A stretch of DNA of 46,420 bases from an uncultured bacterium (GTDB lineage: Bacteria > Oederibacteriota > PGYV01 > CAWJRG01): the NCBI GenBank assembly GCA_963845185.1, contig CAWJRG010000008.1, positions 1-46,420 of the forward strand, written 5' to 3'. Shown piece by piece: positions 9,199-42,971 of the stretch. Position 1 is the stretch's first letter, and every line of letters begins with the position of its first letter. A program made the translations under genes and the position numbers. The notes beneath the pieces are model-generated. The model saw only the letters and a program-made list of their open reading frames with translations. It did no database searches and was not told the origin of the DNA.

Positions 9199-9318
9199 GT
9201 TTTATTATTAACGACTTTTCAAGTCCCCTACCCTATTTTTCTTATTCTGCATGATTGAGAATGATAAAAAATTTGAAAGGAAAGTTGAAATTTATGTGGA
9301 ATGGTATATACTTATTAT

Positions 9319-9414
9319 TGCCCGGGGATCCCCCATTGAAACACAAAATGCGTGGCGTTTTATCCCATTCCCCTCCAATCCCCCCTTAACGCCATGCAGT
9401 CTCCGGGCATTTTC
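9319..9414 (+). ncRNA. candidate structured small RNA with C-rich loops
   Basis: Upstream TTGAAA-16-TATACT; outer stem 9319-9328/9400-9409 and inner stem 9349-9359/9388-9398, each with a G-U pair in plus sense; ends in TTTT. Confidence 0.5.
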
Positions 9415-9759
9415 ATAGCTCTTAGGCTTAGTTGTATCAAGCCTTAGAGATATAAATCCCCGTTCGAGTCCGAAATCGAAGATGATAACAAGAGGGATAA
9501 TTTCTTGATTTAATCAGAATTGGTAATTGAGGGGAAAACTGGAGCAACAAATAAAATGAATATATATGATATGCGACGTCCATGTAGCAAAAACAATTTA
9601 AACAGAAATGATAATTTGCGGGAAGGATAAAAAAAGGGCCCCGTGTTTGTTAGGTGTGTAAATGATATAAGAAGGGTATATCTTATACATTTGATGGCGG
9701 AGTCCTTTGTAGGATTTAATTTATAAAATAAATTAACTGCCTTGTCAAGATAAAGCCAT

Positions 9760-9837
9760 AAAAAAATCCCCGGCAGCCTGGCGGCTCTCCGGGGATCCTG
9801 TAAGTAAATCATTGAATACCATGTGTTCCCACACGGC
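9760..9837 (-). ncRNA. candidate small RNA, copy 2
   Basis: Identical to copy 1, with an ATGAAA-17-TATACT promoter and a longer U tail. Confidence 0.6.
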
Positions 9838-9885
9838 AATATAAGTATATCATACGAACTTTTCTTTTTCATGATTATCTAAAAT

Positions 9886-10177
9886 GTGAAACCGTTTCAC
9901 TTTTTGAACTTTTATACTTTATTCATATTTATTCGTCTTTGTCTTTTCTTGTTCTTGTCTTTGTTCTTAATACTTATACTTACTACTCTCTCGCCCTATT
10001 AGCTCACAACCTTACCTAATTATTCTCACTCCACCGAAACCGCCCTCGCCATCATTTAATTGACTTTGGGAGGGCGAGGGCGGTTTCGGCTGCGAGTGAG
10101 TTTGAGCTTATATTGTAAGGGTTGCGAGCGTTCTTTTACATCCCCGCCATGGGACGTATATTGTGAAACGGTTTCAC
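9886..10177. other. cis-acting region: long hairpin flanked by two palindromes (oriT/ssi/parS candidate)
   Basis: GTGAAACCGTTTCAC (9886-9900) and GTGAAACGGTTTCAC (10163-10177) flank a nested inverted repeat at ~10002-10129 (core CCGAAACCGCCCTCGCC / GGCGAGGGCGGTTTCGG). Confidence 0.55.
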
Positions 10178-10217
10178 TTTTGGTTTTTATGGGTTTTTCC
10201 GGTTTTTAAGGCAGTTG

Positions 10218-11033
10218 TTAAATTTTTTTTAGTTTTTTATCATATAAGTCTTTTACCAGCTTTAAGCCCCCTTGTTCCCTCTTGTAAACATAAATTGCGT
10301 ACCTTTCAAGGTTTTCTTTTGAAAGCCGGTTAAAATATACCTGCGCCTTTATCCAGGACGGGACCACAAAATATATCCTCGCGTAGCCTTTATATTCGTT
10401 CTTGTAATCATAAATCCAGTCCTTTATTGTTTTGGTATTTTTCGCGCCTGTCTGGTATTCGACAAGGTTTACCCCTGCGCCGTCCACAAATATAAAGTCC
10501 GGAATCCTGTACCCGCGCCTTATCCTGTGTATGAAACTGTCATTTAACTTTTTGCCTTCCGATTTTGCCTTTTCTTCGGCTTTTACAATCGTGGTATTGA
10601 CTTCCTTTACCCGCTCGCGCCTTAAAATGTAGTCCGTCTTATATTCAATAATGCCCTTGTGATATTTTAAAAACCATATAAGTATGTCTATGACCGCAAT
10701 ATCGTGGGCCAGTTCCCTGAAATTAATGTTGTAATCCGCTGCGTCAATGCCCTTTTCCTTTAAAAAGTTAATTCCCTGCCCTGTGAGCCGGTATATTTTT
10801 TCCCTTAATAGCCCTGTCTGGAAATAATAGCCCTTTAAATAGCGTTCAGCCGGCACAAATATCCCGTTTTTCTTTATTGTCTTCCCTTTCTCAAGCATTT
10901 GGACATACTTTTTGGCGTTGTCATAGCTTCCGGAAAAAAACATTTCGGCTATTTGCTGGATTTGGATTATTTTTACCCGGTATATGAAGGCTAATATGTT
11001 TATTTTGCGCGTCAACTTCTCATTCTTTGTCAT
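10218..11033 (-). CDS. replication-relaxation family protein (wHTH + PD-(D/E)XK-like)
   Basis: Likely start MTKNEK at 11033 overlapping the virD4 stop; YRLTGQG, ELAHDIAV and IPDFIF..VEYQTG motifs; adjacent to the coupling protein. Confidence 0.7.
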   Translation of the reverse strand: MTKNEKLTRKINILAFIYRVKIIQIQQIAEMFFSGSYDNAKKYVQMLEKGKTIKKNGIFVPAERYLKGYYFQTGLLREKIYRLTGQGINFLKEKGIDAADYNINFRELAHDIAVIDILIWFLKYHKGIIEYKTDYILRRERVKEVNTTIVKAEEKAKSEGKKLNDSFIHRIRRGYRIPDFIFVDGAGVNLVEYQTGAKNTKTIKDWIYDYKNEYKGYARIYFVVPSWIKAQVYFNRLSKENLERYAIYVYKREQGGLKLVKDLYDKKLKKI

Positions 11034-19744: not shown

Positions 19745-21497
19745 CCCGCATCCGTTATATCAAATTCATAAAAGAGAATGAAAAAGGGCTAAAAGTATTA
19801 TATAATAAGGTAAATAAAAGTTTTTGAGCTGTAAAAAGGAGGACACCTAATGGGTGAAGCGAAAAAACACTGTTTTAAATTCAGTTTTACTGACAAAGTA
19901 AAAGCATATTTTAAGGGTTCTGAAATTACGTCGGACGGTGGATTAATTGCTATTCGAGAACTTGATGAAAAAATGGGTCTGACTATTTTGGCTGAAAAAC
20001 ACCTGACTGATAAAAGAAACGGAAGAAATATTCAACATGACTTAACCGAACTTTTACGACAATCCATATATAGCCGTTTGGCGGGCTACGAAGATGTAAA
20101 TGATGCCAAGCAACTAAGGAACGACCCTTCTTTAAGGGCAGTACTTGGTGACCGGGCATTACAGAGAAATGGCAGCAGTGAGGCCACTGTTGGAAAATTC
20201 GAAACAGAAATACTCACCGAAGGAAATAACCTGGAAAAACTCGATGAGATGTTAATGAATTGGATAGGCAAAGCGGATAAGATTAGGGGCGTTAAAAAAA
20301 TAGTGCTTGATTTGGATTCGTCCGAAAGCCCGGTATATGGTGAACAGGAAGGAAGCGCTTATAACGGTTATTTCGGATCAAAATGTTATCACCCCCTTTT
20401 CTGTTTCAATCAATTTGGAGATTGTCTTAAGGCAAAATTAAGACCGGGTAATGTCCATAGCGCCGATGCGTGGTTGGAGTTTATCGAACCCGTTTTAAGA
20501 AATTATATCAGCAAAGGGTTTAAAGTCACCTTCCGTGCAGACGCGGCTTTTGGGATACCGGAATTATATGAACTCTGCGAAGAACTTGGCGTAGAATACG
20601 TCATTAGGCTAAGAGAGAATAATTGCCTTGCAGAAGAGAATATCCGGCTTACTGAAAAAGCCCGTCAAAAAAACCGACAAAAAGTTCATCACGCTGTATA
20701 AAGATTTTATGTATCGAGCCAAGTCGTGGAATAAAAAAAGAAGAGTGATTGCAAAAATAGAATATCACCATGGCGAATTGTTTCCGCGGGTGGGATTTAT
20801 TATAACAAGTTTAAACTGGCTCGATAAAAAAGCAGTAAAATTTTATAACAAACGTGGTACTTGCGAACAATGGATCAAGGAGGGAAAACACACGCTGAAT
20901 TGGACGAAGCTATCCTGCAAGAGATTTAAGGAGAATGAAGCGAGATTGAAATTATTTATTTTGGCATATAATTCAGGAAATTTCTTACGGACCTGGTTTT
21001 ACCAAAGAAGATAAAACACTGGTCGTTAAAAACGATACAGTTAAAGTTGATAAAAATAGGTGGCAGATTAATAAAACATGCCAGGTATTACTGGTTGTTA
21101 TTGGCCGAGGTTTCTATTACAGCAAAGATATTTTCCGGTTTAATGCATAATATTCGGAAATTACGCCCGGCAAGCGGCTGATAGAATTGGCTTGGTAACA
21201 TGTAACATATTTATAGAGGAGCAAACAAAAATGATTGGACAGGCTTGTCTAAAAATATGGAATTGGGAAAGATTAGACCGAAAAATCGGGTAATCGGTAT
21301 AGTTTGGAGGAAAATATTTCATTGAACCAACAGAATAAAAACATTTCTCTTGATTTTGACATCATTTGGAGTAAAATTAATGATGAAAATAGGCTGGTTG
21401 ATTTTGATATGACGGATACCAGTTTAATATATTTAACGTATGTTTATTGTATTAAACGAGTGTTTATTTGTAAATATATATTTATATTGGAATCGGG
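19745..21497 (+). mobile_element. decayed IS1380-family element
   Basis: Contains a frameshifted IS1380 transposase; imperfect IRs CCCGCATCCGTTATA / TATATTGGAATCGGG, so ends are approximate. Confidence 0.65.
19850..21181 (+). pseudogene. IS1380-family transposase with two frameshifts
   Basis: TSDGGL, GYEDVNDA, LDLDSS, YHPLF, RADAAF and YNKRGTCEQWIKEGK motifs spread over three frames (shifts near 20630 and 20995; tail ..KLIKIGGRLIKHARYY..). Confidence 0.88.
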
Positions 21498-21676
21498 GTA
21501 CTGCAAATTTACACAAACGCTGTAAAAAATATATTTAAGGCAAATTTATTACTTTTGAAAGGCTTCCGGGCTGGTTGGTATAAGTGAATTTTACAACTTA
21601 TTGAATTCCAGCGGGCATTATGATACTATTAGCTATACAATTGAATGCAGTTAAGGTGAAATAGGGAGACAAAACA

Positions 21677-23890
21677 ATGGAATTTTACGCGCATACGCAG
21701 GGGAAAGACAAAAGGGACTGGCAAAAACTCAAAGACCATCTGGCCACAGTCGCGGATATGGCAAGCGCATTTGCAAAACAGTTCGGAGCCGGGGAGCTCG
21801 GATATCTGGCAGGGATACTTCATGATGTGGGGAAGTATTCAATGGAGTTCCAGGCAAAGCTTGATGGGAAAAACCAGAGGGTTGACCACAGCACGGCAGG
21901 GGCGAAAGAAGCGGCTGAAAGATACGGACAGATTGCGGGAAGAATACTTGCTTATACAATAGCCGGGCATCATGCAGGACTGGCGGATTATATAGGAAGC
22001 GGGGATGACTCGTGCCTTGAAGCGCGGTTGAAAAATAACAATATTCCGGATTATAGTTTTTATAAGAATGAATTGACTGAACTTCCAAAAGACAACCCAT
22101 CATTTCCGAAATTAAAAGTTTCCGAGAAAACAGAAATGGAATTTTCCTGTTTTATGCTTATACGCATGCTTTATTCCTGCCTTGTTGATGCGGACTGGCT
22201 GGACACTGAACGGTTTTGTGATGTGGAAAAATCACAAAAAAGAGAAAACGGACTGCCAATAAAAGAACTTGAAGAGAAACTGAATGAATATCTTAAAAAG
22301 GAATATCCTCCCGAAGCGGAACAAACAGACTTAAACAAACAAAGAACAAAAATAATGCAGGCGTGCCTTGATAAAGCAGAATCCAAACCCGGATTCTTTA
22401 CGCTTACTGTGCCGACTGGTGGGGGAAAAACATACTCATCACTCGCATTCGCATTAAAACACGCAAGGCTAAACAACCTTGAAAGAATCATATATGTAAT
22501 ACCTTATACCAGCATAATAGAGCAAAACGCCGAGGTGTTCAGGAAAGCACTTGGAGTTGAAAGCGTGCTTGAACATCACAGTAATTATGAATATAAGGAA
22601 AAAGACGAGGATGAAGACGACCTTGATTATAAAATGAGGCTTGCGACGGAAAACTGGGACATGCCCGTGGTAGCCACGACAAGCGTGCAATTTTTTGAGT
22701 CATTATTCTCAAACCGCAGTTCAAGATGCCGCAAACTTCACAATATGGCGAACAGCGTCATAATACTCGACGAGGCGCAGATGCTGCCTGCGCAGTACAT
22801 GAAACCCTGCATATACGCGCTGGCGGAACTGATAAAGAACTATAATTGCACGGTTGTTTTCTGCACAGCCACACAACCAGCGCTTTTTGACTACCCGCCA
22901 GAAGGTTTTAAACTGCCGGGTGGCATGAAACCTATGGAGATAATAGAAAAACCAAAAGAACTTTATGAAAAGTTGAAAGCGGTAAATGTAGAGTGGAAAG
23001 ATGAAATTGGAAATGACGATTTGATAGAAAAGCTGTCTGAAAATAAGCAGATTCTTTGCGTAGTAAATACAAGACGGCTTGCGCGGGAGTTATATGAAGG
23101 GTTAAAAAATAAAAGAATTGAAGGAATCTACCATTTAAGCGCAGGGATGTGCCCTGCTCACAGGTCGATTAGGATAGTGGAAATAAAGGATAAGTTGAAA
23201 AACGGTGAAAAGTGCATAGTGGTTTCCACACAGCTTATAGAGGCGGGGGTTGATATTGATTTTCCACTAGTTTACCGAGAAATTGCGGGGATTGACTCCA
23301 TAGCACAGGCAGCAGGCAGGTGCAATAGGGAGAGAAAGATAAAAGAAGGCGGCAAGGTTTTTGTATTCAAACCCGCGGGCCGCAAAGCACCTCCGGGATT
23401 TTTGGCAAGGACTTCGGGAGTGGCAAAGGAAGTTATTAACCTAAATGAAAATAAAGATTTATTAAGCCTTAAAAACATAAAGGAATACTTTGAAATACTC
23501 TATTCAAGGGAAGGTGAAGGATTGGACGGAAAAAATATTCTACAAAATATAAAAAACAGCAGCGGAAGATTGGAGTATCCTTTCAAGACGGTGTCAGATA
23601 ATTTTAATTTAATTGACAACACAACATATTCGCTGATTGTCAGGTATGACGAAAAATGCGAAGGGATTTTGGAAAGCGCAAAGTTTTCAGAACACCCAGG
23701 CTCCTTTGCCCGCAAGCTTCAACGATACACAATTCAGGTGTATAAACAGGATTATGATAAACTGTTAAAAGGAGGAAAGATAAAAAATTTTAAGGATGTG
23801 TTTTTTGTGCTTGAAAAAGATGCGTATTTACCAGAAATGGGGGTAATTATTGAAACTACCGGCAACGTCCCAGAGAATTATATTACATAG
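21677..23890 (+). CDS. cas3: Cas3 HD nuclease-helicase
   Basis: YAH, HDVGK, DHSTAG, AGHHAGL, LVDAD, PTGGGKT, DEAQ and QAAGRCNR motifs. Confidence 0.96.
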   Translation: MEFYAHTQGKDKRDWQKLKDHLATVADMASAFAKQFGAGELGYLAGILHDVGKYSMEFQAKLDGKNQRVDHSTAGAKEAAERYGQIAGRILAYTIAGHHAGLADYIGSGDDSCLEARLKNNNIPDYSFYKNELTELPKDNPSFPKLKVSEKTEMEFSCFMLIRMLYSCLVDADWLDTERFCDVEKSQKRENGLPIKELEEKLNEYLKKEYPPEAEQTDLNKQRTKIMQACLDKAESKPGFFTLTVPTGGGKTYSSLAFALKHARLNNLERIIYVIPYTSIIEQNAEVFRKALGVESVLEHHSNYEYKEKDEDEDDLDYKMRLATENWDMPVVATTSVQFFESLFSNRSSRCRKLHNMANSVIILDEAQMLPAQYMKPCIYALAELIKNYNCTVVFCTATQPALFDYPPEGFKLPGGMKPMEIIEKPKELYEKLKAVNVEWKDEIGNDDLIEKLSENKQILCVVNTRRLARELYEGLKNKRIEGIYHLSAGMCPAHRSIRIVEIKDKLKNGEKCIVVSTQLIEAGVDIDFPLVYREIAGIDSIAQAAGRCNRERKIKEGGKVFVFKPAGRKAPPGFLARTSGVAKEVINLNENKDLLSLKNIKEYFEILYSREGEGLDGKNILQNIKNSSGRLEYPFKTVSDNFNLIDNTTYSLIVRYDEKCEGILESAKFSEHPGSFARKLQRYTIQVYKQDYDKLLKGGKIKNFKDVFFVLEKDAYLPEMGVIIETTGNVPENYIT

Positions 23891-23905
23891 GAGGAGGGCA
23901 TTTTT

Positions 23906-24925
23906 ATGGGTGTTCTATATGGTTCGGAATTGATTAGCTTGTTAAGGAAAAGTGCCGATGCTATTTGTAGAAGATTATGGGTTGCTGTACCTTTTATGGG
24001 AGGCCCGAATACGGTTAAGAGGATTTTAGGAGACAAATGGACGAAGGGCAATATTGACGTAAAGATATTAACCGGGGCTTGCAAGTTTATAAAGCCCGCA
24101 TTTGAAACTTTAAAGTTATTTGAGCATTATGGAAAAATTAAGGTAATACCAGGACTTCACGCTAAAATATACATAATGGACGACGTCGTACTACTGACGT
24201 CTGCAAACCTTACTGATACTGCTTTCAGAAAAAGGCATGAGTTTGGGATTTTTTTGAACGGGTTGGAAACCGTTCAGGCAGTTTCCCTGTACGAAAAGTG
24301 GTGGGATAAAGCGTCGATTTTAATACCTCAAATGATAAAACCTGATAAAAAAAGTAAAGCTATAGAAACTGAAGACAGTTTCGGTTTTAATCTTCCAGTC
24401 TTGTGGACTCTGCCTCAAAGTCCGGACATGGTGAAACTGAATATATTAAGTGGTAAATACAAATATTGGTTTAAACCGCTTGGCTCGTCAGAAAACAACT
24501 ACCCAAGAACAGCACAGGCGCCTACAGATTTTGTAACCTGTACGAGTAAAAAACCTGCTGGCCCCAGCGGAATCAAAGCAAATAACTTGATGTTTTGCTT
24601 CAGTGTCGAAAATGAAAAACGCATTGTTGGCGCATACGTTGTGAAAAGTGCACCGAGATTAATGTCACAAGCTGAAATGGATAGCAAAAATCTGGATAAA
24701 AGGTGGCCGTGGTCTATAGAAGTAGAAAATTTAAATGAAAAATTCAGTATAGATTGGTGGAATAAGGAAGTTACATTAAATAAATTAGTCAAAGAGTTTA
24801 AGAATATTAACGATGATCCTATTACGGAAAACGGTCGTTACGATTTAAAGGCAGCGAATCAGCAGGCACCTTATTTTAAAGTGAGGGAAGACTTTGCTAA
24901 ATTTGTACTTGATAAAATTAAGTAA
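23906..24925 (+). CDS. PLD (single HKD) nuclease fused to a possible EVE/PUA-like domain
   Basis: LHAKIYIMDD + TSANLT + HEFG; the C-terminal YWFKP..IKANNLMFCFS..IVGAYVV..RWPWSIEV pattern suggests EVE/PUA. Confidence 0.7.
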   Translation: MGVLYGSELISLLRKSADAICRRLWVAVPFMGGPNTVKRILGDKWTKGNIDVKILTGACKFIKPAFETLKLFEHYGKIKVIPGLHAKIYIMDDVVLLTSANLTDTAFRKRHEFGIFLNGLETVQAVSLYEKWWDKASILIPQMIKPDKKSKAIETEDSFGFNLPVLWTLPQSPDMVKLNILSGKYKYWFKPLGSSENNYPRTAQAPTDFVTCTSKKPAGPSGIKANNLMFCFSVENEKRIVGAYVVKSAPRLMSQAEMDSKNLDKRWPWSIEVENLNEKFSIDWWNKEVTLNKLVKEFKNINDDPITENGRYDLKAANQQAPYFKVREDFAKFVLDKIK

Positions 24926-24937
24926 AGGAGGTTTTCT

Positions 24938-25627
24938 ATGGGCTACGGAATAAAACTTAAAGTATGGGGTGAGTATGCTTGTTTTACAAGACCGGAGATG
25001 AAAGCGGAAAGGGTAAGCTATGACGTCATGACGCCGTCGGCGGCAAGAGGCGTATTGGAGGCTATACACTGGAAGCCGGCCATACGCTGGGTTATAGACA
25101 AGATACATGTGCTCAACAAGATTGATTTTGACAATATACGGCGGAACGAGGTAAGCGGGAAAATACCGGAAGGGAACGTTAGGCGGGCAATGCGAGGGGA
25201 AGAAGTGGAGCTTTACCAGGCCATAACTGATGAGCGTCAGCAGAGGGCGGCTATGGTTTTGAAGAACGTAGCTTATGTTATAGAGGCGCATTTTGAGATG
25301 ACGGATAAGGCAGGGGAGACGGATAATCCTGAAAAACACTATAATATATTTCTCCGCCGCGCGCGGGAAGGGCAATGCTTTCACCGGCCTTATCTCGGGT
25401 GCAGGGAGTTTCCGGCTGATTTCGAACTGATAGAAGACGGAGAAAAGATACCGGAATCAGAATTGAAAGGTACGACTGACCTGGGCTGGATGCTTTATGA
25501 CATGGAGTTTAAAGACGAACAGGCAACCGGAATATACGGAGAAATAAACCCTAAATTTTTTCGTGTAGAAATGAAGGATGGGATAATAGACGTGGCAAAG
25601 CAGGCAAAAGAGGGGGTGAAAAAATGA
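24938..25627 (+). CDS. cas5: type I-C Cas5
   Basis: VWGEYACFTRPEMKAERVSYDVMTPSAARG and PYLGCREF motifs. Confidence 0.96.
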   Translation: MGYGIKLKVWGEYACFTRPEMKAERVSYDVMTPSAARGVLEAIHWKPAIRWVIDKIHVLNKIDFDNIRRNEVSGKIPEGNVRRAMRGEEVELYQAITDERQQRAAMVLKNVAYVIEAHFEMTDKAGETDNPEKHYNIFLRRAREGQCFHRPYLGCREFPADFELIEDGEKIPESELKGTTDLGWMLYDMEFKDEQATGIYGEINPKFFRVEMKDGIIDVAKQAKEGVKK

Positions 25628-27420
25628 TACTCAGGGCTCTTTATGATTATTATCAGACACTGGCAGAGGATACTGATAGCGGTATATCTAAAACAGGATA
25701 TAGCAAGGAAAAAGTCAGCTTCGCTTTGGCAATAAATAAAAAAGGGGATTTAAAAGATATTATCGAGCTTAAAGAAGGAAAGAAACCGCTATTAATGGAT
25801 GTGCCGCAGCATGCAAAACGCACTTCCGGAGTTTCTCCGTATTTTCTTTGCGATAACCCGAAGTATATGCTCGGCGGGAAAAAAGAGAACTTTAAACAAT
25901 GCGCTGAACTGCATAAAAAGATACTCGCGGATATGGATGATGAATCAGCGCAGGCTGTCTTAAAGTTTTTTGGCAAATGGGAGCCAAAGGATTATAAAAG
26001 CAATGAGCTGATAAGAGAGCATAAAGAGGAAATAGTCAAGGGAGGGAATGTGGTTTTTAGCGTTGAGGGTATAAAAGGATATGTTCACGAAAAGCCAAAA
26101 ATCAGGAAAGCATGGGAAAAATATACAGGCTCGGAAGCGAAAGAAAACGGAGGGATAAAAGGGCAGTGCCTCGTGACCGGAGAAGAAACAGAACTTCTTG
26201 AGGTGCATAACAGTATAAAGGGAGTCTGGAACGCGCAGTCATCAGGGGCGGCAATAGTATCTTTTAATAAAGAATCGTTTGAATCATACGGGAAAAAGCA
26301 AAGCATCAATGCGCCGGTCGGCAAAGACGCGGCTTTTGCTTATGTAACAACGCTGAACTACATGCTTAACCCGTCGTCTTTGCAGAATATGCAGATTGGG
26401 GACGCAACTACGGTTTTTTGGGCTGAGAGATACGGGACAGGGCAGGAAGAACTTTTTTACGCGCTTTTTAATCCATATGATATAGAGGAAAAGAAAGAAA
26501 ACGAGGAAGAAAAAGGGACAAAGAAAAGAGCAGAAAAAGAAAAGGAACAAAAAAAGACAAGGTTGAACGATCCTGCAACTGTAAAGCGTATGAGGGATTT
26601 TCTTGGCCGCGTTGCGCAGGGTAAAGGGCTAAAAGATTTTAAGGGATATGATAAGGATGTGAGGTTTTATGTTTTGGGGCTTTCGCCCAATGCCGCAAGA
26701 ATTTCAGTCAGGTTTTTCTATGCGGACACTTTCGGCAAGATGGTTGAAAAAATTAAGCAGCATTATGACGATATGCTGATAGAAAAACAATATAAAAACG
26801 AGAGTGACGCGATAGCGATATGGCAGTTATTGAGGGAAACAGCGGCGCAGGGCAAATCGGAAAATATCCAGCCCGCGTTCTCGGGCGGATTAACAAAAGC
26901 TATATTAACAGGCGGCTTATATCCGGCCGCTGTTTATCAGGCTGTTATTTCAAGGATGGGCGTTGACAAAAACATTAACAGAAACAGGGCGGCTTTTATA
27001 AAAGCGTACATAGAAAGAAAAAACAGAATAAATGGAAAGAAAGGAGGTGTGACAATGGGGTTGAATGTTGAAGAAAAAAACACAGGGTATTGCCTCGGCA
27101 GGCTCTTTGCCTTGCTTGAAAAGGCGCAGTTAGATGCTTCGCCCGGAATCAATGCCACCATCAAGGACCGGTATTTCGGGACAGCTTCGGCGTCGCCAAA
27201 AGCGATTTTTCCAATCCTTTTAAAGTTAAGCCAGCATCATATCGCAGGAGCGAAGTACGGCAAGTTTACAGACAAACAGATAGAAGAAATAATGGGAGAA
27301 ATAAATACGTTTCCAGCGCATTTGAGTCTTGATGAGCAGGGGATGTTCATGCTTGGGTATTATCACCAAAGAAATGCTCTATACAAAAAGAGAGAAGAAA
27401 ATAAAAAGGAGGAGGTTTAA
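25624..27420 (+). CDS. cas8c: type I-C Cas8c (Csd1)
   Basis: MILRALYDYY, CLVTG, LGLSPNAARISVRF, GRLFALLEKAQ and GYYHQ motifs; an internal AGGAGG-ATG (MGLNVEE) fits the usual Cas11c internal start. Confidence 0.95.
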   Translation: MILRALYDYYQTLAEDTDSGISKTGYSKEKVSFALAINKKGDLKDIIELKEGKKPLLMDVPQHAKRTSGVSPYFLCDNPKYMLGGKKENFKQCAELHKKILADMDDESAQAVLKFFGKWEPKDYKSNELIREHKEEIVKGGNVVFSVEGIKGYVHEKPKIRKAWEKYTGSEAKENGGIKGQCLVTGEETELLEVHNSIKGVWNAQSSGAAIVSFNKESFESYGKKQSINAPVGKDAAFAYVTTLNYMLNPSSLQNMQIGDATTVFWAERYGTGQEELFYALFNPYDIEEKKENEEEKGTKKRAEKEKEQKKTRLNDPATVKRMRDFLGRVAQGKGLKDFKGYDKDVRFYVLGLSPNAARISVRFFYADTFGKMVEKIKQHYDDMLIEKQYKNESDAIAIWQLLRETAAQGKSENIQPAFSGGLTKAILTGGLYPAAVYQAVISRMGVDKNINRNRAAFIKAYIERKNRINGKKGGVTMGLNVEEKNTGYCLGRLFALLEKAQLDASPGINATIKDRYFGTASASPKAIFPILLKLSQHHIAGAKYGKFTDKQIEEIMGEINTFPAHLSLDEQGMFMLGYYHQRNALYKKREENKKEEV

Positions 27421-27421
27421 A

Positions 27422-28288
27422 ATGTCTGAATCAATCAAAAACCGCTATGAGTTTGTCGTGCTTTATGACGTGGAAAACGGGAACCCTAACGGCGACCCGG
27501 ATGCCGGAAATATGCCGAGGATAGATTATGAGACAGGATATGGCATTGTCACGGATGTTTGCATTAAAAGAAAGGTAAGGAACTATGTGGAGATAACAAA
27601 GGAAGGCAAAAAGGGTTTTGATATTTATGTAAAAGACGGCTCAATCCTGAACAACACCAACAAAAAAGCTTACGAAGCGCTGAAACTCGAGCCGGAAGAA
27701 AAGAAGCTGCCCAAAGACGAAGACGACGCGAAAAAGGTAACGGATTTTATGTGCAAGAATTTCTACGACATCAGGGCTTTTGGCGCGGTAATGACCACAA
27801 AAGTAAACTGCGGTCAGGTAAGAGGGCCGGTCCAGTTCAGCTTTTCCAAAAGTATTGACCCGATAGTCCAGCAGGAAGTTTCCATCACAAGAATAGCAGT
27901 TACAGATGAAGGTGATAAGGCAGCGGAGACAGGGCATACTATGGGTAAAAAGTTCATTGTTCCTTACGGCCTATACAGGATGGAAGGATATATATCGCCT
28001 TTCTTCGGGAAACAAACAGGCTTCAACGAGGAAGACAAAGACCTGCTTTTTGAGGCGCTGAAAAATATGTTTGAGCATGACCGCTCCGCGGCGCGCGGCA
28101 AAATGGCAGTGCGTAAGCTATGGGTGTTCAAACATGACTCCGAACTTGGTAACGCCCAGGCGAATAAGTTGTTTGAGACGATAACCATAAAACGCAAAGA
28201 TGAAAGCAAGCCTGCGCGGGCGTTTGAGGATTACGAAATAAAGACAACGGCTGCGCCGGGCGGGGTTAATGTGGAGGAATTGATTTAA
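27422..28288 (+). CDS. cas7: type I-C Cas7 (Csd2)
   Basis: NPNGDPDAGNMPR, DIRAFGAV, GQVRGPVQ and FEHDRSAARG motifs; start at 27422 after GGAGG. Confidence 0.96.
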   Translation: MSESIKNRYEFVVLYDVENGNPNGDPDAGNMPRIDYETGYGIVTDVCIKRKVRNYVEITKEGKKGFDIYVKDGSILNNTNKKAYEALKLEPEEKKLPKDEDDAKKVTDFMCKNFYDIRAFGAVMTTKVNCGQVRGPVQFSFSKSIDPIVQQEVSITRIAVTDEGDKAAETGHTMGKKFIVPYGLYRMEGYISPFFGKQTGFNEEDKDLLFEALKNMFEHDRSAARGKMAVRKLWVFKHDSELGNAQANKLFETITIKRKDESKPARAFEDYEIKTTAAPGGVNVEELI

Positions 28289-28312: not shown

Positions 28313-29128
28313 ATGAAAAAGGAAAGGCAAATTGTCGTAAGCGGTACGGCGGTGACAATACTGCAGGTCAATGGGCAGGATTACATATCGTTGACGGATA
28401 TGATAAAAGCAAAAGACGGGGATTTTTTCATATCCGACTGGCTGAGGAACAGGAACACTGTCGAGTTCCTGGGCATCTGGGAGAGCGTCAACAACCCCGG
28501 TTTTAATTATGGCGAATTCGCCGTAATTAGGAGCCAGGCCGGATTGAACCGTTATAAAATCAGCGCGAAAGAGTGGATTGAGAAAACCGGCGCGATAGGC
28601 CTTAAAGCCTCGGCAGGAAGGTATGGCGGGACTTACGCGCACAAGGATATAGCTTTTGAATTCGGCATGTGGATAAGCCCGGAATTTAAAATTTACCTGA
28701 TCAGGGAATTCCAGCGCTTAAAAGACGAGGAAAATAAACGCCTGAAGCTCGGATGGAGCCTGCAGCGGGAACTCGCGAAGATAAATTATAAGATACATAC
28801 CGACGCCATAAAGGAAAGGTTGATGCCTGCGGTTGTTGGAAAAAGGCATTGCTCGCTCATATACGCGGATGAGGCGGATTTGCTGAATGTGGCGCTTTTT
28901 GGAATGACGGCAGGGGAATGGCGCGGAAAAAATCCCGGGAAAGAAGGCAATATCAGGGATTTCGCCGCGCTGGAGCAGCTTGTTGTTTTGAGCAACCTTG
29001 AAAGCATAAATTCCATGCTGATAAGGCAGGGTTTGCCGCAGAATGAAAGGCTAATGAAACTGAACGAAATGGCGATAATGCAGATGAAATCTTTGCTTAA
29101 AAACGACAATATAAAGAAGCTGAAGTGA
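28313..29128 (+). CDS. KilA-N domain protein
   Basis: DYISLTD, WLRNRNTVEFLGIWE and GRYGGTYAHKDIAFEF motifs. Confidence 0.88.
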   Translation: MKKERQIVVSGTAVTILQVNGQDYISLTDMIKAKDGDFFISDWLRNRNTVEFLGIWESVNNPGFNYGEFAVIRSQAGLNRYKISAKEWIEKTGAIGLKASAGRYGGTYAHKDIAFEFGMWISPEFKIYLIREFQRLKDEENKRLKLGWSLQRELAKINYKIHTDAIKERLMPAVVGKRHCSLIYADEADLLNVALFGMTAGEWRGKNPGKEGNIRDFAALEQLVVLSNLESINSMLIRQGLPQNERLMKLNEMAIMQMKSLLKNDNIKKLK

Positions 29129-29808
29129 GCAAAATGCCGTTTGACGAAGATGATTTACTGGCCCTGTCGGGGCTACAGCACTATTTTTACTGCAAACGGC
29201 AATGGGCGCTGATACACGTGGAGGAACAGTGGGTTGAAAACGCGCTGACTGCCGAGGGCAGGCTGCTGCATGACAGGGTTGACAACAGTAAAAACATTGA
29301 ATACAGGGAAGGCGCGATAATAGAGCGCTCTGTCGCGCTAAAGTCGGCGGAACTCGGCATATACGGCGTGGCTGATGTGGTCGAATTTTTCAGGAGCGAA
29401 GCAGGCGTGAAGCTGGCTAATGAAGAGGGCCTGTGGCAGCCGAGGCCCGTCGAATATAAACGCGGCAAGCCTAAAGCCGGGATATGCGACAGGGCGCAGC
29501 TTTGCGGACAGGCCATGTGCATAGAGGAGTTGTACGGAGTAAAGATAGAAAGCGGAGACCTGTTTTACTGGCAGACAAGGCACAGGGCGCCGGTCGTTTT
29601 TGACACGGATTTAAGGCAGGCAGTGCGCTGCGCGGCTGAGGATATGCATAATATGATTAAAAACGGCATTACGCCCGGGGTTCCGGACAACGTGAAATGC
29701 AAAAATTGTTCGCTGGTTTCCGTTTGTGTGCCGAAGGTTCAGAAAAAGAAACACGGCAGGGTTGATAAATATATAAATGAAAATATACACGGCGGTGATA
29801 ATGCGTAA
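29125..29808 (+). CDS. cas4: Cas4
   Basis: LQHYFYCKRQWALI, GVADVVEF, PVEYKRG and terminal C..CSL...C. Confidence 0.95.
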   Translation: MSKMPFDEDDLLALSGLQHYFYCKRQWALIHVEEQWVENALTAEGRLLHDRVDNSKNIEYREGAIIERSVALKSAELGIYGVADVVEFFRSEAGVKLANEEGLWQPRPVEYKRGKPKAGICDRAQLCGQAMCIEELYGVKIESGDLFYWQTRHRAPVVFDTDLRQAVRCAAEDMHNMIKNGITPGVPDNVKCKNCSLVSVCVPKVQKKKHGRVDKYINENIHGGDNA

Positions 29809-30832
29809 ACTATTGAATGTGCTGTATGTCACGACACCGGAGGCTTACCTGTCCCGGGACGGCGAGAATATCGTGATAAAAGTGGATGACGAGGAAAAAT
29901 TCCGTGTGCCGTGCCACAACCTGGAGGGAATAGTGTATTTCGGGCACAGGGGCGCGAGCCAGGCAGTGCTCGGCATGTGCGCGGAACGCGGGATTTGCTT
30001 CACGTTCCTGACGCCGCAGGGCAGGTTCCTGGCGCGGGTGGAGGGCCCGGTTTCGGGCAATGTGCTTCTGCGGAAAAAGCAGTACAAAATAAGCGATGAT
30101 AAAACAGAAAGCGCGAAAATAGCAAAACTGTTTGTAATGTCGAAGATTTCAAACGCGAGGGCTGTCTTATCGCGCGTAATACGCGACCATCCGGATAATA
30201 CTGACACGGCAAAAATCAAAAAAGCCATGGATGACATGTCGCTAATGATTTTTAAAGCCGAGAAAAACAACGACCTTGAGGAAATACGCGGGATAGAGGG
30301 AATGTCGGCGCACCTGTACTTTTCGGTTTTTAACGAGCTTATTGTGGCGCAGAAAGACGGGTTTTATTTTACCGAGCGCAGCCGCAGGCCGCCGAAGGAC
30401 AACATAAACGCCCTGCTTTCTTTTGTTTATACCCTGCTCGTGCATGAGTGCCGCTCTGCGCTCGAAACAGTGGGGCTTGACCCTGCTGTGGGATTTTTGC
30501 ACAGGGACAGGCCGGGCAGGCCGAGCCTCGCGCTGGATTTGATGGAGGAACTAAGGCCGTATATAGCGGACAGGGTGGCGCTGTCCCTGATAAACAGGCA
30601 GCAGGTTACGCCGGATTCTTTTACGGCAAGCGAGGCGGGAGGGATATACATGAAAGACGGGGCGAGAAAGACATTGCTTGAAACGTGGCAAAAAAGAAAA
30701 GCCGAGGAAATAACGCACCCATTTCTTGACGAAAAAATCGAAGTGGGATTGATTCCTTATTCGCAGGCTTTGCTGCTCGCGAGGTATATGCGGGGCGATA
30801 TTGAAAGTTATCCGCCGTTTTTTTGTGGATAG
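29801..30832 (+). CDS. cas1: Cas1 (I-C)
   Basis: MRKLLNVLYV, RGIEG, NALLSFVY and GFLHRDRPGRPSLALDLMEE motifs. Confidence 0.96.
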   Translation: MRKLLNVLYVTTPEAYLSRDGENIVIKVDDEEKFRVPCHNLEGIVYFGHRGASQAVLGMCAERGICFTFLTPQGRFLARVEGPVSGNVLLRKKQYKISDDKTESAKIAKLFVMSKISNARAVLSRVIRDHPDNTDTAKIKKAMDDMSLMIFKAEKNNDLEEIRGIEGMSAHLYFSVFNELIVAQKDGFYFTERSRRPPKDNINALLSFVYTLLVHECRSALETVGLDPAVGFLHRDRPGRPSLALDLMEELRPYIADRVALSLINRQQVTPDSFTASEAGGIYMKDGARKTLLETWQKRKAEEITHPFLDEKIEVGLIPYSQALLLARYMRGDIESYPPFFCG

Positions 30833-30837
30833 CACCG

Positions 30838-30875
30838 CTTGTCCCGAACAAGTTCGGGACTTGAGCGGGGACAAG
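30838..30875. repeat. REP-like nested palindrome between cas1 and cas2
   Basis: CTTGTCCCGAACAAGTTCGGGACTTGAGCGGGGACAAG; related copies in opposite orientation at 2859-2905 and, weaker, 9458-9496. Confidence 0.55.
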
Positions 30876-31007
30876 ACTCCGTAAGATTTTGCCGGGTAGT
30901 TTTTAACATGATAACTTATGGATGCTACCCGTTAAATAATCCACAGGATTATTTAACTGTATGTTGACGCTTGGCAAAAACAACGGACTCTAAGGAGGTC
31001 TTATAAT

Positions 31008-31298
31008 ATGATGGTGTTGATTACTTACGATGTCAATACGGAATCCGAAGGCGGGAGCAAGCGGCTGAGAAAGATAGCGAAGGAATGCAAAAATTACGGG
31101 CAGAGAGTACAAAACTCGGTGTTTGAATGCCTTATAGAACCCGACAGGTTTGTCAATTTGAGAAGCGCGCTTGAAAAAATAATGGATAAGGATAAGGACA
31201 GCATAAGGTATTATTTTCTCGGCAGGAACTGGCACAGGCGGGTCGAGCATACTGGCGCGAAAAAAACTTATGACCCGGAAGGGCCGATGGTGATTTAA
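31008..31298 (+). CDS. cas2: Cas2
   Basis: LITYDV..RLRKIAKECKNYGQRVQNSVFEC..DSIRYY. Confidence 0.96.
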   Translation: MMVLITYDVNTESEGGSKRLRKIAKECKNYGQRVQNSVFECLIEPDRFVNLRSALEKIMDKDKDSIRYYFLGRNWHRRVEHTGAKKTYDPEGPMVI

Positions 31299-31483: not shown

Positions 31484-33010
<1,527 letters not shown>

Positions 33011-33921: not shown

Positions 33922-34307
33922 AATTAATTTTAACGCAGCTGTGGCCAGATTGTCAAGAGTTCGTATAAAGTTAAAAGGGAGTAAAATGTAAATTGCAGTG
34001 ATTGTGTAAATTTGCAGTGGTAATGCTATGTATTATTTAATTGACATATGTAAACTAAAATGAACATTGAAAAAGGAATAAGACTGATATAGAAATTTTG
34101 TTTAATGTTACATATAAAATTACCTTACAATATGTAATACTCCATAGTTTGTATGGTAACTATTCTTTGACTACAATTTGTAGTCGAGGCTTATCAGGGG
34201 TCTTTGTTTGTATAAAATTAACGGCAATTTAACGGCAATTTGTCGGAAATTTTGATTGACAAGTTTAAAGGGGTATATTAATATATTTAAAGGAGGTTTT
34301 GATATTT

Positions 34308-35411
34308 ATGACTATTAAATGGAATCCAAAATATAATATTACGACTAAAATGGCTCGTTGCCTCATGGATATTGAGGCTATCAAAAAGGTTATGGACAAT
34401 ATTTCTGTACCTCCGGCTGCTGCCGCAGAGTTAAAATATAATGCTATGATCAGGGCCACTCACTATTCAACCAGAATTGAAGGAAACAAACTTACCTTAA
34501 AGGAAACTGAGCAAGTAATTAAAAAAAATAAAATCGTTTTTTACGGCAGGGAAAGGGATGTTAAAGAAGTTCAAAATTACTGGAACGCATTGATTGCGGT
34601 TCAAAAATGGGCCGAAAGCAAAGCTGAATTTTCAGAAGATATTGTTAAAAAGACACACGGCATAGTTGTTAATGGTAAAAAAGGTGTATCAACGCCGTAT
34701 AGAGAAGGACAGAATGTTATTAAAGACTCTAAAACAGGATGGATAGTATATATGCCACCAGAAGCTAAAGATGTTTCTGCGCTTATGGAAGGCATGGAAA
34801 GGTGGGTTCGTAAGGCTGAAAAGGAAGGAATTCCAGCGCCAATTATTGCGGCCCTGGTACATTACCAATTTGTTACTATACATCCATATTATGACGGGAA
34901 TGGCAGGACAGCCAGGCTGTTGGCCACTTTTATCCTTCAAAAGAGCGGATATGGATTAAATGGATTTTTCTCTATGGAAGAATATCATGCTGCTAATCTT
35001 CCAAAATATTATAAAGCCCTCGTTGTGCATAAACATCATAATTATTATGAAGGCAGGGCAGATGCAGACCTAACATCATGGATAGAATATTTCATATTAT
35101 TACTTGCTGAAGTTTTTAGGAATGTCCAAAAAGAAACGCTTAATTTTATTAAAAAAGGGGTCAAGGCTGAACCAGAAGCCCTAAGAAAACTTGATATAAG
35201 GGGAAGAAATGTATTAGGATTGTTTTTAAAAAAAGATGCTATTACAACTGCCGATATTGCGGCTTTGCTTGGTTTATCGCAGCGAATGGCAAGAAATTTG
35301 GCTGAGAAATGGGTAAAGCAAGGAGTTTTGCTGGTTGCGGAAAAATCAAAAAAATCCCGGGCGTATAGATTAACGGCAATATATCGGCAATTTGTCGGAA
35401 ATAAGAATTAG
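34308..35411 (+). CDS. Fic-family protein with C-terminal wHTH
   Basis: STRIEGN and HPYYDGNGRTARL motifs; C-terminal ITTADIAALLGLSQRMAR. Confidence 0.92.
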   Translation: MTIKWNPKYNITTKMARCLMDIEAIKKVMDNISVPPAAAAELKYNAMIRATHYSTRIEGNKLTLKETEQVIKKNKIVFYGRERDVKEVQNYWNALIAVQKWAESKAEFSEDIVKKTHGIVVNGKKGVSTPYREGQNVIKDSKTGWIVYMPPEAKDVSALMEGMERWVRKAEKEGIPAPIIAALVHYQFVTIHPYYDGNGRTARLLATFILQKSGYGLNGFFSMEEYHAANLPKYYKALVVHKHHNYYEGRADADLTSWIEYFILLLAEVFRNVQKETLNFIKKGVKAEPEALRKLDIRGRNVLGLFLKKDAITTADIAALLGLSQRMARNLAEKWVKQGVLLVAEKSKKSRAYRLTAIYRQFVGNKN

Positions 35412-38248: not shown

Positions 38249-39826
38249 TTACTTTCCTATTAGCATAAATGGAGCCCAATAAAAAGGCGCTTCATAACCC
38301 TTTGTGTTTTTCAATTCCTTATAAGCATTTTGCACAGCTGCAACTTTATTAAATCCTTTACGAAGATTCTTGTAAAATAGTAACATAAATTTTTCCGTCG
38401 AATCACTATATACTGACCATGCTGAAACTAATAAAGATGATGTGCCAGCATATTGAAATGCACGAGTTAAGCCAATAATTTCATCTCCAGGTTTCCAAAA
38501 ATTTAAACCTGTTTGACAGGCACTTAATACTACTAAGCTTGAATTAATTTTAAGATTAAAAATTTCTTTAGCTGTTAACATTCCATCATAAAGTTTAAGT
38601 CCCGATTGCAAAGGGTCTTGCCAGTTAAAAGCACCATGACAAGCAAAATGAATAATATCTTTATTGCTAATATTTTCAAGTACCGTTTGTTTAGTTGCGT
38701 CAGTAAAGTGTTGTTCGTCCGTAAATATGGTTGAAATTTTATGAGTTTCATTATCAAAACCATTACTAAAGCTTACTATACTATTTATGGATTGTTTTTT
38801 ATTAAGATATTTCATTATTGAAGCAGAAGACAAATATACTATCGGGTTAGAATCAATAATTTGTTTATCCTTAAGTGATAAAGCCTGAAGAGGAAAGTAA
38901 TGAATAACTCCAAAGGGTATAAAAAAAATAATATCATCAGATTTTAATAAATCAGCAATAGGCTCAATTAAATATCTGCCAAAGTCTAACCATTCTGTAT
39001 TATGCGTTTTTTTATCAACAATCTCTTTTTCTTCACCCTTTTCTAAGTCTTGAACATAGGAATTAATATATTCAAAATAATTTTTAGTATAATGTATTAT
39101 TTTCTCTTCATTAATAGATATATTTTTAACAGTAATTTTCTTTTCAACAGGTCTAATAAAAAAAATAATTATTTGATCACCTGTATAAAAATATTCTACA
39201 ATTACATTGTTTTGTGTTTGAAAATGCATGCAAATTTCTTCAAAAGAAAGAGTTTTACCCTTCCTTTGCGCAACATATTCCGCGTCATAAGATTCCATTT
39301 CCTTGTAAATATCCTCTAATTCTTTTAATATTTTATCAATCTCTTCTGATTTTTCATTATCTGTCTTATTCTTGATATAATTCGTTTGTGCTCTTCTTAT
39401 AATAGATAATAAGGAATTTTCTTTAGCTAGTAATTCTTGAAATCTTGAATTAGTTGAATTTTTTGGGCTAATATCCGAATTTGCCATTATTTCTAAAAAG
39501 GCTCTTGATTTACATTTCTCTAAATATTCATATGCTTCAATATTTTTATCTAATTTAAGACAAATTAAAATCATATAACTGTAAATTTCGACACTTTTTA
39601 TTGAAAAAAAACTTTTAAATTCTTCGTTAATCAAATTTATACTTGTTTTTTCAACAAGATTTACTGCTTCTTTGCAATAATTGTAAGCGATTTCAGGATG
39701 ATTTAAACGCTCAAAATATATTCTCGCCAATGAAATGTTGGCGGTTTTCTGTGAATCATAATTACTAATAGAATTCGCAACTTCTAATGCTTCCTTAAGG
39801 TACTTAACACCCTCTTCATTTCTATG
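38249..39826 (-). pseudogene. 3' half of the TPR-CHAT caspase-like protease gene, cut by the IS21 element
   Basis: Catalytic IIHFACHG and VVLSACQTG, plus APFYWAPF; the frame stays open up to the IS end with no start or RBS. Confidence 0.9.
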
Positions 39827-42342: not shown

Positions 42343-42454
42343 AGCATTTGGTTTTATCGGCGGTTATTAAAATCTTGATAAGCGCAAATGAAAGTAATAT
42401 AATAATATTACTGAATTAGTTGTTTATTTTAAATAAAATCGCGAGGTGTTCAGA

Positions 42455-42868
42455 ATGCCTGAATTATTAAGATTTGGAGTTTCATTGGACAGCCACCTTC
42501 TTAAAAAATTTGATAACCACGTTAAAAATAACAAATATCCAACAAGGTCAAAAGCCATAGCCGATTTGATAAGAAAGGTATTTGTGGAACAAGAATGGGA
42601 GGATGGCAAAAATGTAGCTGGAGCCATAATAATTGTTTATGACCATCACAAGAGAGATCTAGTAAATAAGTTGATTAACACACAACACGATTTTCAGGAC
42701 ATTATAATAGCCTCACAGCATGTTCATCTTGATCACAACAATTGTCTCGAAGTGGTCGTTGTAAAGGGGAAAACGTCAAAAATTCGTGAGCTGGCGTCGA
42801 TTTTAAAGTCCGCAAAAGGAGTAAAACACGCAGCTTTATCCGCCGCCACAACTGGTAAAAATTTTTAA
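42455..42868 (+). CDS. nikR: nickel-responsive regulator NikR
   Basis: RFGVSLD..RSKAIADLIR, YDHH and HVHLDHNNCLEV motifs. Confidence 0.95.
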   Translation: MPELLRFGVSLDSHLLKKFDNHVKNNKYPTRSKAIADLIRKVFVEQEWEDGKNVAGAIIIVYDHHKRDLVNKLINTQHDFQDIIIASQHVHLDHNNCLEVVVVKGKTSKIRELASILKSAKGVKHAALSAATTGKNF

Positions 42869-42922
42869 TTCCATGTCAGCAATTCTATACTTATAATAAT
42901 TAAACAATGTGGAAAAATCCTG

Positions 42923-42971
42923 TTGACATCTGGCTTCTATTCGTGCTACATTTTTTATAAACGTGGCACGA
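42923..42971 (+). promoter_or_regulatory. promoter overlapped by a NikR operator
   Basis: TTGACA (42923) and TGcTACATT -10; GTGCTAC-N13-GTGGCAC (42943-42969) resembles the deltaproteobacterial NikR box GTGTTAC-N13/14-GTAACAC. Confidence 0.75.

Follow-up and report, generated by a model that had tools for sequence, protein, structure and literature searches.

A PLD-EVE gene lies within a type I-C cas operon

The window analyzed here is the whole of contig CAWJRG010000008.1 (C8; 46,420 bp), which belongs to the 3.5-Mb, 11-contig genome of an uncultured bacterium of the phylum Oederibacteriota. It carries a complete type I-C CRISPR-Cas locus on the forward strand, in the order cas3, PLD-EVE gene, cas5, cas8c, cas7, KilA-N gene, cas4, cas1, cas2, and CRISPR array. 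The gene under study is the one between cas3 and cas5, whose 339-residue product (P0001) joins a nuclease fold of the phospholipase D (PLD) superfamily to a domain that models as an EVE/YTH-type fold; we refer to it as PLD-EVE. According to Pfam, the contig also encodes a RepA/TrfA-like initiator, two ParA-ParB pairs, a type IV coupling protein, a relaxase-like protein, an integrase, and insertion sequence (IS) transposases, and by this gene content it looks like a plasmid or conjugative element. No terminal overlap indicative of a circular molecule was found between the contig ends.

The PLD-EVE gene, its parts, and its two junctions are as follows:

23906-24925, forward strand: PLD-EVE gene, 339 residues, an open reading frame (ORF) by translation
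23906-24325, forward strand: N-terminal PLD nuclease domain, residues ~1-140 (Pfam, profile, Foldseek)
24158-24208, forward strand: HKD catalytic motif, H85-x-K87-x4-D92 followed by S99-A-N101 (translation)
24455-24922, forward strand: C-terminal EVE/YTH-like PUA domain, residues ~184-339, as predicted by structure model and fold searches
23891-23905, forward strand: cas3/PLD junction of 15 bp, reading gaggagggcattttt, with a GGAGG ribosome-binding site 8 nt before the ATG
24926-24937, forward strand: PLD/cas5 junction of 12 bp, reading aggaggttttct, with an AGGAGG ribosome-binding site

A sequence-only reading of the window had placed the gene inside the operon, 15 bp after the cas3 stop codon and 12 bp before cas5, with a GGAGG site, and the sequence bears this out. 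An AGGAGG-type site also precedes cas5 in four sister operons. No intrinsic-terminator-like site was found by consensus scan in either the cas3/PLD or the PLD/cas5 junction, and promoter-like sites with 10/12 matches, located by consensus scan only, cluster 5′ of cas3 (21356-21535). Co-transcription of the PLD-EVE gene with the cas genes is consistent with the terminator and promoter scans, which are no proof of it. The G+C content of the gene is 0.377, compared to 0.417 and 0.474 for the flanking cas genes.

Such a placement would suit a dedicated CRISPR accessory working with Cas3 and Cascade, which might cut Cascade-bound modified targets that Cas3 cannot process or might supply spacer fragments to Cas4-Cas1-Cas2. 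The position within the operon, the 15-bp and 12-bp junctions, the gene's own ribosome-binding site, and the lack of a terminator-like site between the gene and either cas3 or cas5 all argue for this explanation, which is taken up again below with the evidence from relatives and sister operons.

The remainder of the operon comprises the following features:

21677-23890, forward strand: cas3 of type I-C (PADLOC Cas3c, E = 7.7e-233; Pfam HD, DEAD, and Cas3-like_C_2)
24938-28288, forward strand: cas5c, cas8c, and cas7c (Pfam and PADLOC, E = 7e-50 to 1e-185)
24938-25627, forward strand: cas5 (PADLOC Cas5c, E = 3e-76)
28313-29128, forward strand: KilA-N gene, a second guest between cas7 and cas4, 271 residues (PADLOC candidate PDC-S22, E = 1.6e-129)
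29125-31298, forward strand: cas4, cas1, and cas2 (Pfam and PADLOC)
31484-32994, forward strand: CRISPR array with 23 copies of a 32-nt repeat (repeat search, family D1, spacing of 66-72 nt)

The cas8c and cas1 assignments rest on PADLOC Cas8c (E = 4.5e-163) and Cas1c (E = 9.8e-155). The KilA-N gene is a second extra gene of the operon, which was absent from the sequence-only reading; its product matched Pfam KilA-N (E = 5.9e-23) and PHROG 2657, a transcriptional regulator (E = 1e-59).

The N-terminal half has a single-HKD PLD nuclease fold

An AlphaFold2 model of the full PLD-EVE protein, built on 36 family sequences, had a mean predicted local distance difference test score (pLDDT) of 87.3 over the 339 residues and resolved two domains, between which runs a linker of low confidence (about residues 141-183; pLDDT below 50 at 174-179). 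The translated N-terminal domain contains an intact HKD motif, LHAKIYIMDDVVLLTSANLT, in which H85-A-K87-IYIM-D92 is followed by S99-A-N101, and this is the only HKD motif in the 339 residues. Across the five closest full-length relatives, H85, K87, D92, S99, N101, and E112 are invariant. The Pfam PLDc_2 model was matched above its cutoff (E = 2e-8; 34.6 bits versus 27), and the short Pfam PLDc motif model was matched below its own (18.4 versus 21.9). When the single protein was searched against PDB sequences with phmmer, only chance-level matches were returned (E of at least 0.58). The family profile, run against the sequences of solved structures, identified R.NgoAVII (E = 1.1e-7) and BfiI (E = 3.3e-6), and the Pfam RE_NgoFVII PLD domain was found in 25/36 family members. 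In Foldseek, the best match of the N-terminal domain was SauUSI (7clg; E = 2.7e-9), along with NucT (6ehi; target-normalized TM score of 0.75, root mean square deviation [rmsd] of 2.3) and Nuc (1byr; 0.76), and further fold matches included Zucchini, BfiI, and NgoAVII. Translation, PLDc_2, the NgoAVII/BfiI profile matches, and Foldseek all agree with the earlier call of an intact HKD nuclease. The N-terminal half is therefore a single-HKD PLD-superfamily nuclease fold, for which nuclease activity is predicted.

With a single HKD motif per chain, an active site requires two chains. Nuc and BfiI are dimeric and metal-independent. A symmetric homodimer predicted for the PLD-EVE protein scored 0.66, compared to 0.01 for the best of three controls, a value that may reflect likeness to the solved Nuc and BfiI dimers. 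As a yardstick, that mark was met by 20/30 proteins solved as one-chain pairs and by 1/23 solved as single chains. Agreement between runs covered at least 79% of the contacts, with a partner pLDDT of at least 78, and the predicted interface, formed by residues 81-88, 97-100, and 109-115, corresponds to the HKD region.

DrmC, the PLD protein of DISARM, was considered as an identity for the protein and rejected. NCBIfam NF038319 gave 34.4 bits against a cutoff of 133, with a match limited to the HKD stretch at residues 84-126, and the PADLOC DrmC matches were confined to the same short stretch.

The C-terminal half models as an EVE/YTH-type PUA fold

When folded alone, the C-terminal domain reached a pLDDT of 90.6 and a predicted TM score (pTM) of 0.85. 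In VIA-align, which is independent of Foldseek, the top match was the EVE protein PH1033 (Z of 11.9, rmsd of 3.1, 130/161 residues aligned), followed by YTH domains (Z of 9.6-10.7), THYN1 with 5-methylcytosine (5mC) DNA (9.8), and the EVE-HNH protein VcaM4I (9.5, 130 residues). An ASCH protein (Z of 8.7) and McrB N-terminal domains (6.7-8.3) came lower, after which the score was 4.9 at rank 19. All 16 chains with a Z of at least 8 were EVE, YTH, ASCH, or McrB-N. Foldseek likewise returned PH1033 (E = 4.4e-4) and VcaM4I (E = 9.4e-4). The aromatic residues W188, F214, Y232, W267, W284, and F330 are invariant or at least 90% conserved in the family. The EVE domain that the sequence-only reading had called by eye was thereby recovered at the level of the fold. 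These searches of the modeled structure support an EVE/YTH-type PUA fold for the C-terminal half, with membership by fold only, and the reading of a modified base is predicted.

The same matches bear on an RNA-directed role, in which the YTH-like domain would read an N6-methyladenosine (m6A)-type RNA base and the PLD domain would cut RNA as Zucchini does, or on a toxin-like role in stabilizing the plasmid or the operon. The m6A-RNA-binding YTH domains scored nearly as high as the EVE proteins, YTH is the sole Pfam hint on the reader, and Zucchini is among the fold matches of the nuclease. Moreover, the host has many N6-adenine methyltransferases, and other guests of I-C operons described below, i.e., a DUF3990 pair and a DUF3800 gene, are not obvious DNA restriction enzymes. 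However, the nuclease profile matched best to the DNA restriction enzymes R.NgoAVII and BfiI, with RE_NgoFVII in most of the family, and the top fold match of the reader was an EVE protein, with the EVE-nuclease VcaM4I close behind. As for a toxin, the 15-bp and 12-bp junctions hold no antitoxin-like small ORF. We regard both roles as quite improbable.

Relatives of the PLD-EVE protein lie apart from I-C cas genes

Searched exhaustively with HMMER, 1.84 billion cluster representatives yielded 385 proteins with an E of at most 0.001. Full-length matches formed a minority of these relatives, the closest (P0008-P0011) being 32-37% identical to the PLD-EVE protein, and a second group of about 350-365 residues aligned from residue ~75 through the end. 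Most strong matches covered the N-terminal domain only, at 40-47% identity, in proteins of about 400 residues with a different, unrecognized C-terminal domain. The 90% cluster of the PLD-EVE protein has one member, from one contig. A full-length relative was found in 0/60 genomes of the host's order and phylum, and 13/60 hold PLD-domain matches in other architectures.

The commonest N-domain relatives (P0002-P0006, P0013, and others; alignment A5) share a conserved C-terminal domain of about 220 residues whose consensus ends in ...NAGLRFFGY. For the C-terminal domain of these ~400-residue proteins, Pfam found nothing and a profile search of the PDB matched the PLD part only; the ESM Atlas gave scores of at most 0.86, with unnamed clusters.

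By means of two conserved peptide patterns, we collected 161 related loci, 80 each in reference genomes and in metagenomes and 1 on a viral contig. Flanks of at least 3 kb were available on both sides in 65 loci and on at least one side in 115. Nine loci encode full-length relatives, and the sole viral-contig locus encodes the N-terminal domain only; tblastn of the PLD-EVE protein against a phage collection gave no match. The seven Cas proteins of the window and its KilA-N protein had tblastn matches in 0/161 related loci. An exact-repeat array finder, which recovered the window's own array as a positive control, detected an array within 10 kb in 1/161 loci (L160). On this metagenome contig, a 7-repeat array (8639-9070) lies next to a gene for a 548-residue protein with a Cas12f1-like TNB domain (9313-10959). 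The PLD gene and the array of L160 do not form one operon, because they are 5 kb apart with a peptidase gene between them.

Pfam scans of the neighbors at 12 of the 161 loci, the two full-length genome loci among them, found no cas gene. Defence-type neighbors at these 12 loci comprised a PIN toxin, an AAA_15 ATPase, AbiH, a type I R subunit, HEPN_Toprim, a Dam methylase, HerA, integrases, and a transposase; other neighbors were housekeeping genes, and the relatives themselves are solitary genes. Two distant plasmid relatives carry the annotation 'restriction endonuclease PLD domain-containing protein'; their neighbors are SbcD/SMC or ATPase/helicase genes, and a cas gene was annotated at 0/2 of these loci.

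The sequence-only reading had put the gene forward as a CRISPR-linked accessory effector and had set the context of its homologs beforehand as a refuting test. That context showed no cas enrichment, as far as I-C queries reach: I-C cas genes stood beside relatives in none of the 161 related loci and neither of the two plasmid loci, and the 60 kin genomes held no full-length relative. Location inside a cas operon was seen in one instance, and a recurrent cas or array neighborhood across genomes was not seen with these queries.

Junctions of I-C operons in the host phylum hold variable guest genes

Cas5 was searched in 99 genomes of the host phylum, and gaps between cas genes were measured by tblastn; the weaker Cas5 matches of G088 and G026 were left out. 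An operon was counted if at least one gene-sized stretch lay between cas genes or if a gene other than cas3 stood directly before cas5. By this measure, 8/10 I-C operons examined in the phylum contain a guest stretch, related genomes not being independent samples. The two operons without a guest are those of G090, with a single junction on its contig, and G040. Guest genes in the phylum include DUF1016 nucleases, KilA-N/ORF6N proteins, and DUF3800. Four sister operons from the same order (L189-L192) have Cas5 proteins 77-89% identical to that of the window. The guest positions are as follows:

G012 (L189): cas3/cas5 junction empty, 65-72 bp; DUF3800 gene in the cas7/cas4 junction, L189:6605-7222 (E = 5e-9)
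G015 (L190): protein of 280 residues and no known family, 3093-3935, starting 10 bp past cas3 and ending 26 bp before cas5; no guest in the cas7/cas4 junction
G021 (L191): protein of 198 residues and no known family, 26-622, ending 17 bp short of cas5; the contig stops before reaching cas3
G021 (L191), cas7/cas4 junction: ORF6N protein, 4057-4587 (Pfam, E = 1e-33; PADLOC candidate PDC-S05, E = 2.7e-57)
G013 (L192): protein of at least 118 residues, 1-357, ending 23 bp short of cas5; the contig stops before reaching cas3, and the cas7/cas4 junction is off the contig
G057: DUF1016/YhcG PD-(D/E)XK nuclease between cas5 and cas8c
G048: DUF1016/YhcG PD-(D/E)XK nuclease between cas7 and cas4
G067: gaps of 1180 bp (cas5/cas8c) and 415 bp (cas7/cas4, holding a 131-residue ORF)

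For the three pre-cas5 guest proteins of L190, L191, and L192, Pfam and PADLOC found nothing. By eye, the 198-residue guest of L191 has a D...E-x-K pattern (PDVVII...FFEAKV) that resembles a PD-(D/E)XK nuclease. The two DUF1016/YhcG nucleases lie at L245:7490-8704 (reverse strand) and L247:4417-5517 (reverse strand). In G040, a 74%-identical copy of the KilA-N protein is encoded 5′ of cas3, beside a WYL-domain regulator (L244:1144-1959). Given this copy at another I-C locus, the KilA-N protein may be more I-C-linked than the PLD gene.

As a comparison sample, 400 Clostridia-class genomes yielded 25 I-C cas5 loci in 24 genomes. A guest gene was present in 1/25 of these loci, cas3 adjoined cas5 in 23/24 measurable ones, and a cas7/cas4 insert occurred in 0/22. 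At the lone exception (L218:5271-6162, reverse strand), a 1.3-kb cas3/cas5 gap is taken up by a DUF3990 gene (E = 1.9e-51) together with a partner ORF of 146 residues that overlaps it.

No similarity was detected among the guest proteins by blastp, and different cargo in near-identical operons implies separate gain events. In 5/6 cases the G+C content of the guest gene is below that of both measured cas flanks; for the guest of L190 it is 0.192, versus 0.271 and 0.309, and for the KilA-N gene it is 0.468, between its flanks. An integron-like or otherwise site-specific cassette mechanism was also considered; by eye, the junctions of five operons showed no shared repeat or recombination site. 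In these 10 operons, set against one comparison sample, the cas3/cas5 and other cas junctions appear as slots for interchangeable guest genes; we offer this pattern as a lead, and a more interesting one than the PLD gene itself.

The sister operons also complete the case on a dedicated accessory. That they fill the same junction with other genes might point to a functional advantage of the position itself. However, their cargo is unrelated to PLD-EVE or missing, with an empty junction in L189; cas3 directly adjoins cas5 in nearly all measurable Clostridia-class operons; and the protein has a complete stand-alone type IV architecture. Together with the relatives found apart from I-C cas genes, this makes a dedicated CRISPR accessory improbable, and the proposal of a CRISPR-linked effector found no support in these comparisons.

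A further reading is that the gene is an inert passenger, inserted recently by chance, neutral or in decay, and without any contribution of its own. Its G+C content, lower than that of both flanking cas genes, its unique form in a single-member 90% cluster, and the IS elements on the contig, with a transposase fragment beside the locus, would fit such an origin. Against this, the frame is intact over 339 codons, the catalytic and family-conserved residues are all present, both domains model confidently (pLDDT of 87 and 91), and a well-placed ribosome-binding site precedes the gene while cas5 retains its own. We therefore think it very doubtful that the gene is inert.

A stand-alone nuclease for modified DNA is the probable function

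We consider it probable, with moderate confidence, that the PLD-EVE protein is a stand-alone dimeric restriction nuclease for modified DNA, co-expressed with Cascade and Cas3 and complementary to them, and acting independently of Cas proteins. As Nuc and BfiI do, two chains would pair via their single HKD motifs and so build one shared PLD active site, and the EVE/YTH-like pocket domain at the C terminus of each chain would recognize a modified base. Modified DNA, most likely phage or foreign plasmid DNA bearing a cytosine modification, would then be cut without metal ions or ATP. The gene would have been acquired horizontally into the cas3/cas5 junction, a guest slot in this I-C lineage, and through this acquisition it is proposed to be transcribed with Cascade and Cas3. 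In this arrangement, PLD-EVE would attack modified genomes that escape type I CRISPR interference, with no Cas proteins needed. A passage of Bell et al. 2020 (PMC7641849), citing Vlot et al. 2018, reports that phage genomes carrying modifications escape interference by type I CRISPR systems. Of the earlier proposal that the gene product cuts modified invader DNA, the cleavage itself remains the best functional guess from sequence and model, and the casting as a CRISPR effector gives way to a self-contained type IV enzyme.

The host background suggests which modification might be targeted. The 99.4%-complete host genome encodes many N6/N4 methyltransferases but gave no match to the C5-cytosine family (PF00145), so a cytosine-modification target would be safe for the host and a general N6-methyladenine (6mA) target would not. 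No methyltransferase family was found among the Pfam-scanned ORFs of the window. As in type IV enzymes, a nuclease is fused here to a predicted modification reader without a cognate methyltransferase, and cleavage restricted to modified DNA is a prediction.

Several observations weigh against a stand-alone modified-DNA nuclease. With a ribosome-binding site in each of its 15-bp and 12-bp junctions, the gene would be integrated into cas expression, as expected for a true accessory. Curated Pfam models stayed below threshold for the C-terminal domain (YTH, 17.2 bits versus 22.1; EVE, no match), and across the family Pfam detected EVE in 1/36 members and YTH in 1/36. Recognition of m6A in RNA is also a property of YTH-like folds, and RNA is the substrate of some PLD nucleases. 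The closest relative is only 37% identical to this exact protein. The cas search in the related loci, many of them on short contigs, relied on the window's I-C queries and the exact-repeat array finder, which other cas types could escape, and the Pfam scan of neighbors covered 12/161 loci, among them two of the nine full-length ones. Finally, the relative at L160, though N-domain only, lies 5 kb from a CRISPR array that is accompanied by a Cas12f/TnpB-like gene.

A broader reading treats the I-C operons of this phylum as platforms with fixed slots (cas3/cas5, cas5/cas8c, and cas7/cas4) for single-gene defences co-expressed with Cascade-Cas3. In it, PLD-EVE would act on modified phage DNA missed by Cascade and would hand its cleavage products to Cas4-Cas1-Cas2, so that innate restriction of modified DNA would be linked to the uptake of spacers. 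We hold this extended version to be unlikely. Should the stand-alone nuclease be correct, a modification-dependent enzyme under the Cascade-Cas3 promoter would close the modified-phage gap from one transcript of a mobile plasmid. The cas junctions of this lineage, filled mostly by nucleases and KilA-N/ORF6N-type guests, offer a convenient hunting ground for single-gene defences, and I-C operons with guests are a natural setting in which to test whether innate and adaptive immunity act in synergy. The PLD-EVE family, as an uncharacterized and unannotated branch, could also yield a reagent for the detection of modified DNA.

Other features of the contig

The gap between cas1 and cas2 in the window (30833-31007) spans 175 bp, compared to 3-16 bp in every other measured operon, and contains a hairpin with a 12-bp stem (30931-30957) according to a consensus scan. 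The longest cas7 ORF uses a TTG start and overlaps cas8c by 92 bp (27329-27420). Its true start is probably downstream of this TTG, because relatives align only from residue 32 and Pfam from residue 38. Just upstream of the promoter region of cas3, positions 19850-21014 hold a DDE transposase ORF (283 residues; profile positions 4-271 of 435) and a following ORF of 128 residues; by sequence, this remnant looks like a broken IS element. Further genes of the contig are listed below:

7845-9125, reverse strand: serpin (E = 5e-108)
34299-35411, forward strand: Fic-domain protein
38249-39730, reverse strand: CHAT-domain protease
42446-46392: NikR and a CbiMQO-type metal transporter cluster

Comparison with known systems

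Our literature search found no published report of a PLD-EVE gene in a cas operon or of fixed guest junctions in type I-C. The main text of a preprint on CRISPR-linked genes (10.1101/270033) does not contain I-C, PLD, phospholipase, KilA, or restriction, and its supplements may list more. The prediction of PLDc-EVE proteins as type IV enzymes has already been published (PMC7641849); relative to the passages of that source considered here, the cas-junction cargo slots are new.

In that work, Bell, Wolf, and Koonin (2020) list 'numerous' PLDc-EVE fusions among predicted type IV enzymes, with the same two-part architecture of a PLD-superfamily nuclease and an EVE-type reader. As with such predicted enzymes, the window has no methyltransferase among its scanned ORFs and the relatives occur in defence-type neighborhoods. 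The reader of the window protein differs in being divergent and was missed by the Pfam EVE model. The passages of PMC7641849 at hand describe no PLD-EVE gene inside a cas operon, and its supplements may bear on whether this subfamily was included.

END nucleases provide an experimental parallel: according to the sections of the preprint PMC12191111 considered here, a single protein combining PLD and sensor restricts hypermodified phages, with specificity set by the C-terminal domain. END-PaCF1, for instance, is likewise a single gene with an N-terminal HxK PLD nuclease and a C-terminal sensor for modified phage DNA. By their published description, which is the basis of this comparison, END sensors are inactivated EndoIII/OGG domains, whereas that of the window protein is EVE/YTH-like. 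The same sections place PLD-EVE/PUA fusions among the PSI-BLAST relatives of the END N-terminal domain, with EVE/PUA as alternative sensors, and the ~400-residue N-domain relatives described above may be END nucleases.

VcaM4I and SauUSI are both restriction enzymes that depend on modification, and their structures have been solved. VcaM4I has a reader that resembles the C-terminal domain of the window protein but a different nuclease, HNH instead of PLD. In contrast, SauUSI (PLD-helicase-reader) resembles it in the PLD domain, but it is a protein of about 950 residues with an ATP-dependent helicase, whereas the window protein is motorless. BfiI, R.NgoAVII, and Nuc have one HKD motif per chain, as does the window protein, for which the dimer is predicted. 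BfiI and NgoAVII differ from it by a B3-like DNA-binding domain that reads unmodified sequence and by their paired methyltransferases, and Nuc differs by having no reader.

Nesting of one defence gene within another system has precedents in the portions of two reports considered here: a type IV system lying within a type I restriction-modification (R-M) locus on VPI-2 of Vibrio cholerae (PMC11411939) and PIN-GNAT-EVE genes beside type I R-M (PMC7641849). In these cases and in the window, the operon of one system hosts a separate, independent defence gene that is presumably expressed along with it. The present case differs from what those portions describe in that the host operon is type I-C cas and the junction cargo varies between related operons. 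Judged by its sequence, the PLD-EVE gene is a divergent branch of a known, largely untested kind, the PLD-EVE enzymes.

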